Notes under the pieces: model-generated
What the model saw: only the letters and a program-made list of their open reading frames with translations
The model's database searches: none
What the model was told of the DNA's origin: nothing
Made by a program: the position numbers and the translations under genes
Virus record (IMG/VR): IMGVR_UViG_2681813263_000016
Length of the DNA stretch: 30,048 nucleotides
DNA from: a virus
Taxonomy: Duplodnaviria; Heunggongvirae; Uroviricota; Caudoviricetes
Direction: 5' to 3' (one strand)
Part shown: positions 7,698 through 22,968 of the stretch, in pieces
Layout of the letters: each line of letters begins with the position of its first letter
Position numbering within the stretch: position 1 is the stretch's first letter

Positions 7698-8054
7698 TCA
7701 CACCTTCACGCATTTTTCACCGATAAAGTTCGCACTGATGGTGCCTGAATCCTCGTCCAGCTCCGCCGGGTTATCCGTGGCGGACCCCGTCATCATGTAG
7801 TTCAGGCCGTTGTCGCCGTAGAACATCACCGTGACGTCTTCCCAGCTGCTGATTTCAATCACGTCCATATCCGCTGCTGCCGCAATGGTCACTTTGATGG
7901 ACGGCGAGGCCATCTTGCTGGAGATGCCCCAGACCTTACCGCCGCCCATATGCTGGGTGCGGCTGAAGCCGCCCGGATTCAGCGTGGATTTCCCCTTGGT
8001 TTTAATTTCGCGGCCATTCACGCGAATGGTCGCCATACCAAGAATTTTTGCCAT
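7698..8054 (-). CDS. M: tail tube protein (Mu gp40/M-like)
   Basis: 118-aa ORF 9 nt downstream of the sheath stop; sheath-tube order is conserved in contractile tails. Confidence 0.7.
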   Translation of the reverse strand: MAKILGMATIRVNGREIKTKGKSTLNPGGFSRTQHMGGGKVWGISSKMASPSIKVTIAAAADMDVIEISSWEDVTVMFYGDNGLNYMMTGSATDNPAELDEDSGTISANFIGEKCVKV

Positions 8055-8063
8055 GTGGCCCCC

Positions 8064-9565
8064 TTAAAGCTTGAACTGAATCAGGCCTGCCAGCACACGC
8101 AGCTGGTTCACCAGATTCGGGTGGCAGATAAAGTTCAGGCGGTTTTTATCACTGCTGTCACGTGTCACCTGAAGCGTGTCTTTGTAATCGCTGAAGTTCT
8201 CCACAAGGCCCGCCGGGAGAAGTTCGGTCTGGCAGATATCCAGCAGTTCTGCGGTGCACAGCTTCGGCGTCATCACCGGCTGCCCCGCATCCAGCGAGTC
8301 CAGCACGTCATCATCCGCCAGCTTGTGGCGCGGATAACGGTTCGTGAAACGGTTCTTGATGATGTAACGGATACGGCCCAGCGTGGCGAGTGACTGCACA
8401 TCAAGGTACGACACATCCGCATCACCGTACTGGTTAACCCGGTACATGGTGATTTCGCGCTCAATGCAGACGTTATCCCCGGCGTCCACCATGTGCGTGG
8501 CAATGCCGTCATGCAGCAGCAGGTTACGCTCCGGCATATCCCAGCGAACATTACGCGCAGGCGGCAGAATGCCGGTCAGGACCAGCGTCTGAAGCGGACG
8601 CGCCGGGTCAATGGCAAGGTGATACGCTGCCGTTGCGCCGTATGACGCGGCCCACATCCACGCCGGGTGCGGTGACAGGTTGGTGCCGATACAGCTAATC
8701 AGCCAGTCATTGCGGGTTTCACCAAATGTGCCTGTCTCGCCGTGTGAGCCACGAAACGCCGTCCACAGCTGCGCCTCCATCATTTTGAGCGGCCCCCAGC
8801 GGTTCAGCAGTTCATCACGCAGGGTGTTCAGGCTTTTCGTGTCGGTGAACGGGGCGATGATATCGGTAAACCACTCCGGGCCGATGGCCGCAACGGCATC
8901 CGCCATTTCCGGTGTCCCGGTGCCGCCGGTAAACGCGGTTGCGGTCACCTTCACACCTGCCGGGAAGGCTTCACCGGTGTGGTAGTTCAGGCGAACGTCG
9001 GCACCGTTGCCGGTGACGCCGTGCCAGTTCACGGTCAGCTCCACGGTATCCGTGGCATCATCCTTCACCGCAGCGGCCACCTGCGTGGCAGGCTTTTTCG
9101 TCACCGCATCAGCAATGGCTTTTGCAATGTTTTCCTTCGTAGCCCCGGCGCTCACACTCACCTGAACGGACACACCATTAATCAGCAGTGCCACCGTTCC
9201 GGCTTCAGTCGCTGTACCCAGCACGGTCAGCGTGGCTTTTGCGGCAGCGCCTTCAGGCGCGGCAACCGGCATTGCCCAGGTTTCCGTGTACGTGTTGGCA
9301 CGACGCAGCATTTTGAGCATTTCAGCCAGCATCGACCCTTTGCCATAAAGCTGGTCTGCCTGGCTGTCACTGGTGATGCGGGTCAGTGACAGGGCGTCTG
9401 CGCTGCCGGACGANNNNNNNNNNNNNNNNNNNNNNNNNNNNNNGCATGGCCCATGACCAGAATTTTTCGGCTTTGCGCGGATGCACCCTCCAGCGCCTGT
9501 GAATTGTCGATATCGATCCAGACAAGCGGGACGCGGATATCATCAGGAATTGAACCCAGCGACAT
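8064..9565 (-). CDS. L: tail sheath protein (Mu gp39/L-like), interrupted by a 30-N gap at 9414-9443 with a frame change across it
   Basis: Seen: N-terminal part MSLGSIPDDIRVPLVWIDIDNS... starts at 9565 and runs into the N-run; the 422-aa C-terminal ORF (8064-9332) is open with no stop all the way up to the gap (checked by hand, 9333-9413). Total span ~500 codons, right for a sheath. The two halves are in different frames, which the unknown true gap length can explain. Confidence 0.75.
9414..9443. other. run of 30 N (assembly gap or masked bases) inside the sheath gene
   Basis: Seen directly: 30 consecutive n characters; the flanking ORF translation carries 11 X residues. Confidence 0.99.
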
Positions 9566-20528: not shown

Positions 20529-21116
20529 TCATCCCCGCGTGACGGACGACACGTTGTCGATAATTTCCAGACAGGCGTCGGTCACTTTCTCCATGCGGTT
20601 AAACCAGCCGTTCAGGTATTTGCCCTGGGCAGGTTTGGATTTGATGATGTCGGCATAAAAGCGGGAACGACGGACAATGCAGCGGGTCAGCAACCAGTCC
20701 GGGGTGGACAGGCTCACTGCCTTACGGGTACGCGGACCGATGATGCCGTCAGCATCCACATCAGCGGCTTCCTGCAAAATCCTGATAGCTTTTTTAACGC
20801 CATGCTGAACCGCCGCATCGAACACAAACATCGCCACGCCATCAGGCCACTGGTCACATCCGGCAGGCAGCCAGTAATCGCGCCAGTAAATCTGCGCGAC
20901 CTGTTCGCGGGTTAAATCCCTGATGCGGGTATCCGGTTTACCGTCGCCGCTGACATCGGTTTTGCCGTCAATCACACCGTCGCGGCGGTCAGAAATGCCG
21001 TATCTGGTTTCGCCGCCACGGTCAGTGGGGTCATTGACATAGACGCCTTCGATATCGGGACGCAGAATAAAATTCAGCGCATACTCAAAGGCCGGGGAGA
21101 ATTTTTGATTTTCCAT
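20529..21116 (-). CDS. endolysin, GH108-type N-terminal domain with C-terminal peptidoglycan-binding domain
   Basis: 195-aa ORF; N-terminal ...DIEGVYVNDPTDRGGETRYGIS... resembles the GH108 catalytic motif and ...DADGIIGPRTRKAV... the PG_binding_3 motif (by eye). No N-terminal hydrophobic signal-anchor. First gene after the mor-proximal terminator. Confidence 0.75.
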   Translation of the reverse strand: MENQKFSPAFEYALNFILRPDIEGVYVNDPTDRGGETRYGISDRRDGVIDGKTDVSGDGKPDTRIRDLTREQVAQIYWRDYWLPAGCDQWPDGVAMFVFDAAVQHGVKKAIRILQEAADVDADGIIGPRTRKAVSLSTPDWLLTRCIVRRSRFYADIIKSKPAQGKYLNGWFNRMEKVTDACLEIIDNVSSVTRG

Positions 21117-21171
21117 AAAAGCACCTGTGAAGCAGATTTAAACGTGGTCTGCTTCATGGTGCCGGAGGTAT

Positions 21172-21193
21172 AAAAAAAGCCGGATTTACCGGC
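21172..21193 (-). terminator. intrinsic-terminator-like hairpin with T-tract (GCCGG-TAAAT-CCGGC-TTTTTTT) 8 nt downstream of mor
   Basis: Seen: same stem-loop and 7-T tract as at 13620-13641 (26 nt identical); lies between the Mor-family gene stop (21202) and the endolysin start (21116). Confidence 0.55.
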
Positions 21194-21201
21194 TTCATTG
21201 A

Positions 21202-21651
21202 TTAAGGACGTCGTGGCGGACGACGAACGGGGTGAGGCAGGTTCGGGGAGTGGTAAAACAAATCCGGCTGGTATTTATTACACTCCAGACGCCGCATCCG
21301 CTTGATGGCCTTGTAGACGGTTTTATACGTCACCCCGTAACGCTGAACCAGTTCAGGAATATTATGGCCGTTAAAATCACGCCAGATACGCATATCCCGG
21401 ACAAGATTCTCCAGAATATTCCCCCTCGGAACATAAACCTGCATCCCGCCGATATAGCGACAAATCGCCACAACCAGCTCAAGGGAATGGGCAGGGTCTG
21501 CGCCAATCCGGGCCAGCTCTTTACGCAGCAGTGCGTTCAGTTCAGAAAGTAACGCCGGATAAGCCGTGTTTTCCTGGTAATCGTTAAGGTATTCCAGAAC
21601 GCTGTCGTCCCGGAAGTCTTCGAATAAATCCTGCTCTTTCATCTGTTTCAT
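21202..21651 (-). CDS. mor: Mor/C-family transcriptional activator (middle/late operon regulator)
   Basis: 149-aa ORF; C-terminal ...YVPRGNILENLVRDMRIWRDFNGHNIPELVQRYGVTYKTVYKAIKRMRRL... matches the Mor/C family HTH region as I recall it; sits directly after gemA as in Mu. Confidence 0.8.
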   Translation of the reverse strand: MKQMKEQDLFEDFRDDSVLEYLNDYQENTAYPALLSELNALLRKELARIGADPAHSLELVVAICRYIGGMQVYVPRGNILENLVRDMRIWRDFNGHNIPELVQRYGVTYKTVYKAIKRMRRLECNKYQPDLFYHSPNLPHPVRRPPRRP

Positions 21652-22199
21652 ACAGCAATTCTCCCGCTGTTTCGTGCGCGGGCATATGCACTGGTCAGTG
21701 CATCATAGCCGCGCAGCTTCCGCCCGGTTTCGCTCACAGGTAAAGGCACACCATGTCGGGCAAAGGCTTCCCGGATGCAGCGCATATGCCACTGTTTGAG
21801 CGTTTCGAGCACAACATGCAACGATTCCCCGTGACACCAGGCCAGCGTGGAAACACCCTGACCGCCATTACGTCTGGCCGTCAGGCGTTCAACGTATTTG
21901 TCCAGCGCAGCGTCGCTGATATCGGAGACGAAACCATCAAGGAACATCTGCTGCCAGATTTTATAAATCTTCTCGCGCGGTGTGACATGCCCCTTAAAGC
22001 GACGGCGGGGATGTTTTTTCTGCTTCTTAAAACCGCGCTCTTTCATGGCATCGAGCACACGTTCCAGTTGTGCAACGGACAGCTCGCGGCAACTGGTTTT
22101 GCCCGTGTGCTGCACCAGAAAGGCGCGGTAAGTGTCATCGTCGAGTTGTAGATCACGACGGGCGACATGAATTAATTTAATCAGGGATGTGCGATTCAT
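21648..22199 (-). CDS. gemA: GemA-like regulatory protein (Mu gp16 family)
   Basis: ORF 21648-22253; start placed at the internal ATG (MNRTSLIKLIHVARRDL...), preceded by GGAGG; position directly upstream of mor. Confidence 0.7.
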   Translation of the reverse strand: MNRTSLIKLIHVARRDLQLDDDTYRAFLVQHTGKTSCRELSVAQLERVLDAMKERGFKKQKKHPRRRFKGHVTPREKIYKIWQQMFLDGFVSDISDAALDKYVERLTARRNGGQGVSTLAWCHGESLHVVLETLKQWHMRCIREAFARHGVPLPVSETGRKLRGYDALTSAYARARNSGRIAV

Positions 22200-22272
22200 T
22201 ATCGTACCTCCAGAAAAGGGGGCGGTGCGGCAACACCGCCAGAATCCACTCACTAAACAGAGGAAACTTTTT

Positions 22273-22539
22273 ATGAAAAACAGTGAACAGCCTTATGATG
22301 TTGCAGGGTATGTCATTGCCTCAAGGTTGCTGATACTCCTTGTCAGAAAGGGGCTAATTACCGCAGAAGAAGGCAAAACGATCCTCGAAGCCGCAGCAAG
22401 CGGAGCGGCAGAGGCTCCGGCATTGAGAACAACGAATAATCCCATCCTGCAAATATCACAGCTAATCACTGATACCATCAGTTTGTTAGACCAAGATTCT
22501 GATGAATATCAAAAGCCTCAGCCATCTGAGCATCCGTAA
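22273..22539 (+). CDS. small hypothetical protein (88 aa) encoded on the opposite strand inside the early operon
   Basis: Seen: ATG at 22273 with GAGGAA 9 nt upstream; fills an otherwise non-coding 278-nt minus-strand gap; AT-rich; its 3' end overlaps the 3' end of the convergent minus-strand gene 22478-22825 by ~60 nt. Confidence 0.35.
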   Translation: MKNSEQPYDVAGYVIASRLLILLVRKGLITAEEGKTILEAAASGAAEAPALRTTNNPILQISQLITDTISLLDQDSDEYQKPQPSEHP

Positions 22540-22825
22540 GAATATCTTTATTTGATAGTCCCAGCCTGCGACGAATGTATTCCTCGCGGGCTGCTTCATT
22601 TTGTAGCGCCACGGCAGCTTCCACCTGGTTCATTTCACGGTTGATAATGCTCCGGACTTCTCTGGCGGTGAGGTCATGCTCAATACCATATTTAACAATA
22701 TCATGCATACGTTCCAGCATCCTTAAATTAGCCATGACGTCATCAATATTAACTGGTGTGAATTTCATTTCTTTATTCTCTGGTTTATTCATTTCGTAAT
22801 ACCTCTTCGCAATAAAAGATTTCAT
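22478..22825 (-). CDS. hypothetical early protein, helical
   Basis: 115-aa ORF with ATGA overlap to the upstream small ORF; AT-rich codon usage. Confidence 0.5.
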   Translation of the reverse strand: MKSFIAKRYYEMNKPENKEMKFTPVNIDDVMANLRMLERMHDIVKYGIEHDLTAREVRSIINREMNQVEAAVALQNEAAREEYIRRRLGLSNKDILTDAQMAEAFDIHQNLGLTN

Positions 22826-22968
22826 TGGGATAACGTTTTTGTATGCGCTCCATCACCTGCATACATGTCTGCTCTGTGGGCCAGATTTTTTTCCGTTACC
22901 GGAATGGCATCGCAGGCATCATTTCCGCAGGTGCCAACCAGCAGGACAAAGCCAGTTGACTTAATCAT
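22822..22968 (-). CDS. small hydrophobic-N-terminus protein (48 aa)
   Basis: ATG at 22968 lies 3 nt after the stop of the upstream gene; N-terminus MIKSTGFVLLVGTCGNDAC looks like a short signal or lipoprotein-like peptide. Below the ORF-track size cut-off as a stand-alone gene. Confidence 0.3.
   Translation of the reverse strand: MIKSTGFVLLVGTCGNDACDAIPVTEKNLAHRADMYAGDGAHTKTLSQ

Follow-up and report, generated by a model that had tools for sequence, protein, structure and literature searches.

A gp15-like gene facing against the early operon of a Mu-like Escherichia coli prophage and paired with a convergent gp14-like gene

Introduction

Bacteriophage Mu is a paradigm phage, and most genes of its semi-essential early region are without an assigned function. 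One interval of this region, directly upstream of gemA, is described in two conflicting ways. RefSeq NC_000929.1 places Mup15 between gp14 and gemA on the complement strand, complement(7896..8162), whereas the curated Mu record AF083977.1 has in its place Mu_54, a frame of 55 codons at 7960..8127 on the strand of the early operon; strand and frame are therefore both in conflict. In the early record M64097 the frame of gp15 had been entered as 'putative F-134', and the annotation update of AF083977 is tied to the Mu lysis paper. Which gene does this interval hold, and in which phase of the phage life would it act?

We address these questions with the equivalent interval of a window of 30,048 nt (IMG/VR record IMGVR_UViG_2681813263_000016), by which we mean the whole stretch of DNA that was analysed. 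The window represents a Mu-like E. coli prophage, and its interval matches the chromosome of E. coli strain FDAARGOS_943 at 100% identity. Among 5,426 complete genomes of E. coli, 27 contain identical DNA. Genes of the minus-strand early operon are arranged in the order gam, a DUF5420 gene, a gp11-like gene, a frameshifted small gene, a gp14-like gene, gemA, mor and a GH108 lysin. A preliminary description of this DNA had pointed to a 278-nt coding gap in the operon. The size of this gap is correct (22200–22477, as gemA extends to 22199 and 22478 is the end of the convergent gene), but the gap is not free of coding capacity on the operon strand, where an ORF of 61 codons had been overlooked. 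The plus-strand ORF of the gap, hereafter gp15-like, and the other features of the locus are collected in Table 1.

Table 1. Features around the interval upstream of gemA, in coordinates of the window
Feature	Position	Strand	Remarks
mor, 149 aa	21202–21651	-	Directly upstream of GH108 lysin
gemA (gp16 family)	21648–22199	-	Pfam GemA, E=5.5e-33; PGAP; divergent from gp15-like
Stem-loop GGCGGTG-N6-CACCGCC	22221–22240	-	C/T tract CCCTTTTCT at 22212–22220; located where gp15 and gemA diverge, between their starts
Shine–Dalgarno sequence GAGGAA	22260–22265	+	Predicted from sequence; SD before ATG in 6/6 subfamilies
gp15-like CDS, 88 aa	22273–22539	+	ATG 22273, TAA 22537–22539; orthologue of Mu gp15/SfMu gp16/phrog_8747
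Rival same-strand ORF, 61 aa (= Mu_54 of AF083977)	22293–22478	-	Judged a non-coding shadow frame
gp14-like CDS (phrog_6075)	22478–22792; PGAP 22478–22825	-	Convergent with gp15-like, 3′ overlap 62 nt
gp15-sense intrinsic-terminator-like hairpin	22562–22605	+	CAGCCTGCGA..TCGCGGGCTG (22562–22593), tail CTTCATTTTGTA; inside gp14-like codons

Results

A plus-strand ORF related to Mu gp15

The plus-strand ORF of 88 codons reported in the preliminary description is present, and so is its 3′ overlap with the convergent minus-strand gene. The ribosome-binding site stands with a corrected spacing, since the nine nucleotides reported before the ATG apply to GAGG and not to GAGGAA (GAGG-N9-ATG equals GAGGAA-N7-ATG). 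The description of the ORF as AT-rich and unlike the phage backbone is weak, because its GC-content is ~48% in comparison with 52–58% in gemA and mor. The stretch that is in fact AT-rich, with 37–40% GC, is at 22600–22900 inside the gp14-like gene. Codon usage of the window copy of gp15-like is atypical, with a slightly negative log-likelihood, which is positive in Mu gp15.

A tblastn match to Mu covers 99% of the length at 54% identity (E=1e-18), and residues 1–86 match phrog_8747 (E=7e-26). Position and orientation also agree with those of Mu gp15, which lies between a convergent gp14 with overlapping 3′-end and a divergent gemA. Moreover, hypothetical-protein CDSs are annotated at the equivalent place in RefSeq (Mup15), in SfMu (gp16), in three Yersinia Mu-like phages and by PGAP. 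Recurrence of ORF, position and orientation in diverged relatives indicates a feature beyond chance. Judged by these sequence comparisons, the plus-strand ORF is a protein-coding gene and the orthologue of phage Mu gp15. The gp15-like gene is accordingly a member of an already known, uncharacterised family and is not peculiar to the present prophage.

Two observations concern the neighbouring genes of the operon. The gp14-like gene probably starts further downstream than PGAP has it (115 aa, MKSFIAKRYYEM...); relatives have 100–104 aa, and their first codon is the ATG equivalent to 22792 (MNKPENKEM...), which overlaps the stop codon of the upstream small gene (ATGAATAA). This lipoprotein-like small gene (MIKSTGFVLLVGTCGNDAC..., 22785–22968) is a homologue of Mu gp13/E14 that is frameshifted in an A7 run (poly-T at 22886–22892 of the plus strand) where relatives have A6, and it is marked as a pseudogene by PGAP. 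A plus-strand terminator call at 22867–22891 was rejected as spurious, because it is produced by the T-run of this frameshifted gene. At the other end of the operon (region 20529–21651), mor is followed by a Pm-like dyad with a T-run (GAAGCCGGTAAATCCGGCTTTTTTT, ~21170–21200) and then directly by the GH108 endolysin, without gp18–20 or a C gene between mor and the endolysin, unlike in Mu. Late-gene control in this prophage may deviate from the Mu paradigm.

Conservation at the amino acid level in two overlapping frames

The obvious competitor of gp15-like is the same-strand ORF equivalent to Mu_54. In this alternative, Mu_54 is the gene of the gap and is translationally coupled to gp14, and the plus-strand ORF is its antisense shadow. 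The curated choice in AF083977 supports it, as do an ATG that overlaps the TGA of the upstream gene and a frame that is open in three clades. A further point in its favour is that dN/dS is similar in the two frames (0.24–0.38 in both). However, third codon positions of the plus-strand and rival frames coincide, and codon-position periodicity and dN/dS hence do not discriminate between them. We used stop-codon survival and a BLOSUM permutation test in their place. In the latter test, observed substitutions were shuffled inside codon-phase classes 5000 times.

Both approaches gave different results for the two frames. An intact plus-strand ORF is kept by each of the six subfamilies. This holds for the L024 clade too, where the Mu_54 frame is interrupted by a stop and lacks a start codon (L024, L026 and L028). 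Indels are absent across the 267-nt ORF at ~70% nucleotide identity. All indels of the alignment fall outside it, and one of them, of 2 nt, lies exactly between the SD sequence and the ATG. For the same nucleotides, 27 of 56 residues are conserved in the plus-strand frame (BLOSUM62 score 128) and 20 of 55 in the minus-strand frame (score 71). In the permutation test the plus-strand frame reached z of 3.4–4.0, and no more than 3 of 5000 shuffles scored as high, whereas conservation of the rival frame was at chance (z of 0.6–0.8, P ~0.25). Identity between homologues is 51–53% in the plus-strand frame and 36–38% in the rival frame, which is in addition variable in length and C-terminus and has no PHROG match. 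An E. coli variant with 98.6% identity differs at five sites, four of which are synonymous third positions. A fourth clade (P0008/P0007), found by exhaustive HMM search, is ~45% identical and occupies the same slot in Mu-like prophages; it is in this clade that the Mu_54 frame is broken and the plus-strand ORF intact. Moreover, Mu_54 leaves unexplained the conserved block that codes for QPYDVAGY, as this block is mostly outside Mu_54 in Mu. The comparative evidence favours gp15 over Mu_54, the frame of which we conclude is a shadow, and we consider it very improbable that the same-strand ORF is the gene of the gap.

A linked cassette in a mosaic slot

For a wider comparison, 63 viral loci were fetched with gemA as anchor, and the 45 close loci were used for counts. 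The slot immediately upstream of gemA is mosaic among related loci. Both the gp14-like and the gp15-like gene are present in 19 of the 45, gp14-like alone in one (L067, a recent deletion) and gp15-like alone in none. In 11 loci the opposite strand carries another gene (phrog_585, with weak similarity to DUF2513), and the remaining 14 have neither gene, with mostly same-direction genes in the slot. The comparison with related Mu-like prophages, which had been recommended in the preliminary description, finds the cassette in some loci and other genes in the same slot elsewhere. Where either gene is present the two occur together in 19 of 20 loci, and in all six subfamilies gp15-like converges on a diverged gp14-like partner, their 3′ overlaps measuring 41–74 nt. 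The gp14-like and gp15-like genes are a linked, fast-diversifying accessory cassette, which is found in ~40% of close Mu-like relatives and always directly upstream of gemA. Presence in some close relatives and absence in others fits an accessory, moron-like unit.

The slot also holds three more divergent opposite-strand ORFs of 79, 80 and 119 aa (the last is phrog_38610), each with an SD sequence and with an ATG 64–74 nt from the ATG of gemA. By HHalign (probability 93.7%, E=1.9e-7) the N-terminal core of gp15 recurs in their proteins. Those of 80 and 119 aa (L040 and L060) match phrog_32893, as does the window protein. The phrog_585 genes (L034, L035, L049–L051, L053, L054, L065, L066, L068 and L074) encode 134–138 aa on the opposite strand, ~31–447 nt upstream of gemA; a small inverted repeat accompanies their divergent starts, and the stop codon is followed by a GGCGGC..GCCGCC hairpin. 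With phrog_585 genes in 11 of 45 loci, the site upstream of gemA is a general hotspot for opposite-strand, backward-facing genes.

Several natural variants have altered gp15. In L067 (IMGVR_UViG_2541047851_000005) gp15 is cleanly deleted between two TGATG repeats, and gp14 and the gemA-proximal hairpin are retained. In L070 gp15 is replaced beyond the fifth codon, and in L028/P0007 (4236–5444) an IS256-family transposase is inserted in the 3′-end of the gp15-like gene, which alters the C-terminus. The natural deletion in L067 and the disruption in L028 indicate that gp15 is dispensable.

Word-indexed protein searches returned near-identical relatives only, and the exhaustive HMM search returned eight proteins, among which two long repeat proteins are probably motif-level noise. 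Two scans of GTDB representative genomes gave no relatives. A metagenome scaffold of 591 nt (L029) encodes at 51–203 a protein of 50 aa (P0011) with the N-terminal core of gp15, and its gene is convergent with a gene for a Sigma70_r2-domain protein, with an overlap of 65 nt. This arrangement hints at a convergent-overlap layout beyond Mu-like phages.

A terminator-like hairpin on the strand of gp15

In all six subfamilies, a GC-rich hairpin followed by a T-run is located on the gp15 strand 20–50 nt beyond the stop codon of gp15-like. The T-tail of the window (CTTCATTTTGT) is the weakest among seven variants, and other subfamilies have TTTTTTCAAG or TTTTGTTAT. Across the seven variants 97% of cells are paired, with two compensatory and four wobble-compatible pairs. 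All seven are more stable as gp15-sense RNA (e.g. −19.2 versus −10.5 and −20.4 versus −11.6 kcal/mol), and this advantage originates from G.U pairs. AF083977 also has a TransTermHP terminator entered at this position.

The hairpin is embedded in gp14 codons (KKAR...RRRLG), and hence protein constraint contributes to its conservation, part of which could be a by-product of gp14 protein conservation. A candidate terminator serving gp15 is favoured by the difference in stability between the strands and by the location of the T-run, which is on the gp15 strand. This terminator-like hairpin with covariation is new here and had been missed in the preliminary description.

The hairpin between the divergent starts

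A second hairpin is located just 5′ of the gemA SD sequence (22207–22211). The minus-strand repeat GGCGGTG-TTGCCG-CACCGCC had been described as a terminator or attenuator-like structure. The repeat is indeed present (22240..22221), followed by the C/T tract of Table 1, and its stem is GC-rich. The U-tract is poor (CCCUUUUCU in the window and CCCCUUUCC in Mu), and of the proposed function at most a weak attenuator is left. The 46-nt fold has −16.8 kcal/mol with z = −2.3, and eight pairs are formed in gemA-sense RNA versus seven in gp15 sense. The stem is invariant in cassette-bearing loci, and the loop is variable across clades. One pair covaries; the outer pair (gemA sense) is G-C in most loci, A-T in PhiR68_1 and G.T in L040. 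Rfam gave no match for either hairpin beyond chance-level snoRNA matches (E >=0.4).

The gemA-proximal hairpin occurs in 22 of the 45 loci, comprising all 19 cassettes and three derivatives, of which two have gp15 or start-region remnants and the third (L067) has gp14. The 23 loci with other gemA leaders lack it. This distribution marks it as the gemA-side boundary of the cassette and not as a general element of gemA.

Could this hairpin be an efficient intrinsic terminator that closes the initial portion of the early operon ahead of gemA–mor? A GC-rich stem of 7–8 bp followed by CCCTTTTCT was flagged by the terminator scan in the window, and Ts stand directly behind the stem in the PhiR68_1 and L040 variants. 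However, Mu and most relatives have CCCCTTTCC or TCTTTCC behind the stem, tails that do not pass the scan, and gemA lacks such a hairpin in half of the related phages. Early transcription of Mu extends to a terminator beyond mor, which also counts against such a function. The t9.2/Pm annotation of AF083977 supports this end of the early transcript. Efficient termination at this site is improbable, and the gemA-proximal hairpin is at most a weak attenuator, or else a leader structure of gemA mRNA. Its use as a Mor-binding dyad was rejected, because the sequence of the Pm dyad differs.

In Mu, the gemA-proximal hairpin falls inside the annotated gem semi-early promoter (AF083977, citing PMID 9454718), which extends over Mu 8151–8217 and spans both the hairpin and the start of gp15. 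Expression of the gem operon in lysogens has moreover been reported. According to a more radical alternative, which builds on this promoter and this expression, the whole interval is non-coding regulatory DNA, i.e. the semi-early promoter and a leader, and both ORFs are accidental. However, the promoter occupies ~65 nt only, and the other ~200 nt are open, free of indels at ~60% nucleotide identity and show protein-like substitutions; SD, ATG and ORF are kept in six diverged subfamilies. We regard an entirely regulatory interval as extremely improbable, and continue with gp15-like as a gene.

Features of the gp15-like protein

The gp15-like product is small and acidic, without a transmembrane segment, and its AF2 fold has three helices with a mean pLDDT of 70 (moderate confidence). 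Across subfamilies only an N-terminal helix-turn-helix-like hairpin is conserved, with the pattern Y-D-V-A-G-Y...L-L-V-x-K-G-x-I-T-x-x-E-G. Sequence searches of PDB and Foldseek against PDB gave no match for gp15 or gp14-like, PADLOC gave no defence-system match for gp15-like, and its Pfam matches were all below threshold. A SHOCT-like domain (PF22746) was rejected, as it scored 17.5 bits against a cut-off of 27 and the Mu and L024 homologues had no match. Hence the profile searches and structure prediction proposed in the preliminary description, now carried out, found neither functional homology nor a structural match. The suggested role in superinfection exclusion, defence or regulation finds no link in PADLOC, Pfam, PDB or Foldseek, and the membrane topology that is typical of Sie proteins is absent. 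Accessible literature on Mu gp15, the semi-early promoter and promoter mapping yielded nothing on the function of gp15/Mup15.

When gp15 would be expressed

The gp15 locus has the order of a compact unit, namely stem-loop, A/T-rich leader of ~20–30 nt, SD sequence, 88 codons and terminator-like hairpin. A consensus scan found no convincing sigma-70 promoter in the direction of gp15; the best PWM matches in this direction reach ~6 bits, and their position is not conserved among the six subfamilies. The preliminary description had seen in this locus the classic layout of a moron expressed from the lysogen. An opposite-strand gene with its own SD sequence, a terminator-like hairpin and patchy presence agree with this layout, and the sigma-70 promoter is the part that was not found.

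Overall, the locus is best explained by a gp15 orthologue that forms a backward-facing unit, is paired with gp14-like, and would be expressed in the lysogen and bind a protein; we assign this explanation a probability of roughly 0.7. According to this scheme, the gp15 unit would be transcribed in the lysogen, while the early promoter Pe is silent. After induction, convergent transcription driven by Pe would shut gp15 down, and the complementary 3′-end of gp14 mRNA may add to this shutdown. The conserved helical hairpin of gp15 would bind a protein, most plausibly gp14-like or the target of gp14-like.

Timing could also be the reverse. Gp15 could be a real gene of the lytic programme, transcribed leftward after induction from an activator-dependent or weak promoter, and not a lysogen moron. 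The failure to find a constitutive sigma-70 promoter fits this possibility, as does the tight linkage to gp14-like, a gene of the early operon. [quoted passage not shown] Lytic expression is the less likely timing, although it deserves consideration, and we prefer expression in the lysogen.

A more specific proposal goes one step further. The gp14-like and gp15-like genes might be a so far unrecognised convergent two-gene switch of Mu-type phages, in which gp15 would be made in the lysogen only, be silenced on induction and antagonise gp14 or a host or phage target. We offer this switch as speculation and think it rather doubtful. If it were true, gp15 could serve lysogenic conversion, immunity control ('cim' in the Mu semi-essential region) or anti-defence, and the rapid diversification of the cassette would reflect an arms race.

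Discussion

Our results can help to settle the dispute between RefSeq and the curated GenBank record over the Mu interval, for which the comparative evidence decides in favour of gp15. The resolution of this gp15/Mu_54 conflict, the terminator-like hairpin on gp15's own strand, the gp14/gp15 cassette and the hotspot upstream of gemA are new here. The anatomy of gp15 is that of an independent backward-facing unit minus an identifiable promoter, paired with gp14. This makes gp15 a candidate for a second Mu gene, in addition to the repressor, to be expressed against the lytic direction.

Some known systems resemble gp15 in layout. Lambda bor, the HK97 gp15 moron and olg1/sie1 of phage Fc02 are likewise small accessory genes against or inside a lytic operon, with their own terminator and a patchy distribution among relatives. 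They differ from the present gene in that gp15-like has no sequence or fold similarity to them, no membrane segment, no nuclease domain and no promoter that was found. The olg1/sie1 gene of the Pseudomonas transposable phage Fc02 is located within the early operon on its opposite strand; lysogens express it, and it confers exclusion of other phages (PMC9936078). It is the nearest functional analogue of gp15, which has no homology to it and no exclusion-type features. At the level of the protein, the core helix-turn-helix of the SHOCT-like domain (PF22746) resembles G-L-I-T-A-E-E-G-K-T-I-L of gp15-like, which is not a member of that family.

Within Mu itself, the t9.2/Pm dyad downstream of mor (AAGCCGG-TTAA-TCCGGCTT with a T-run) is another hairpin of the early region, and it too overlaps with a promoter annotation. 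In contrast to it, the gemA-proximal hairpin has another sequence and a far poorer U-tract and is absent in half of the relatives. Mu_54 and the semi-early promoter of AF083977 cover the equivalent Mu interval. However, Mu_54 lies on the opposite strand and in another frame than gp15 and is not conserved, and the annotated promoter serves gemA.

The direct counterparts of the window protein are Mu gp15 (Mup15, NP_050619; NC_000929 complement 7896..8162) and SfMu gp16, both of 88 aa and with 51–54% identity to it. They share with the window the slot between gp14 and gemA, the reversed orientation, the 3′ overlap of 62 nt and the upstream hairpin. In comparison with Mu gp15, the window copy is a diverged allele, and it resides in a prophage that has its GH108 lysin directly after mor.
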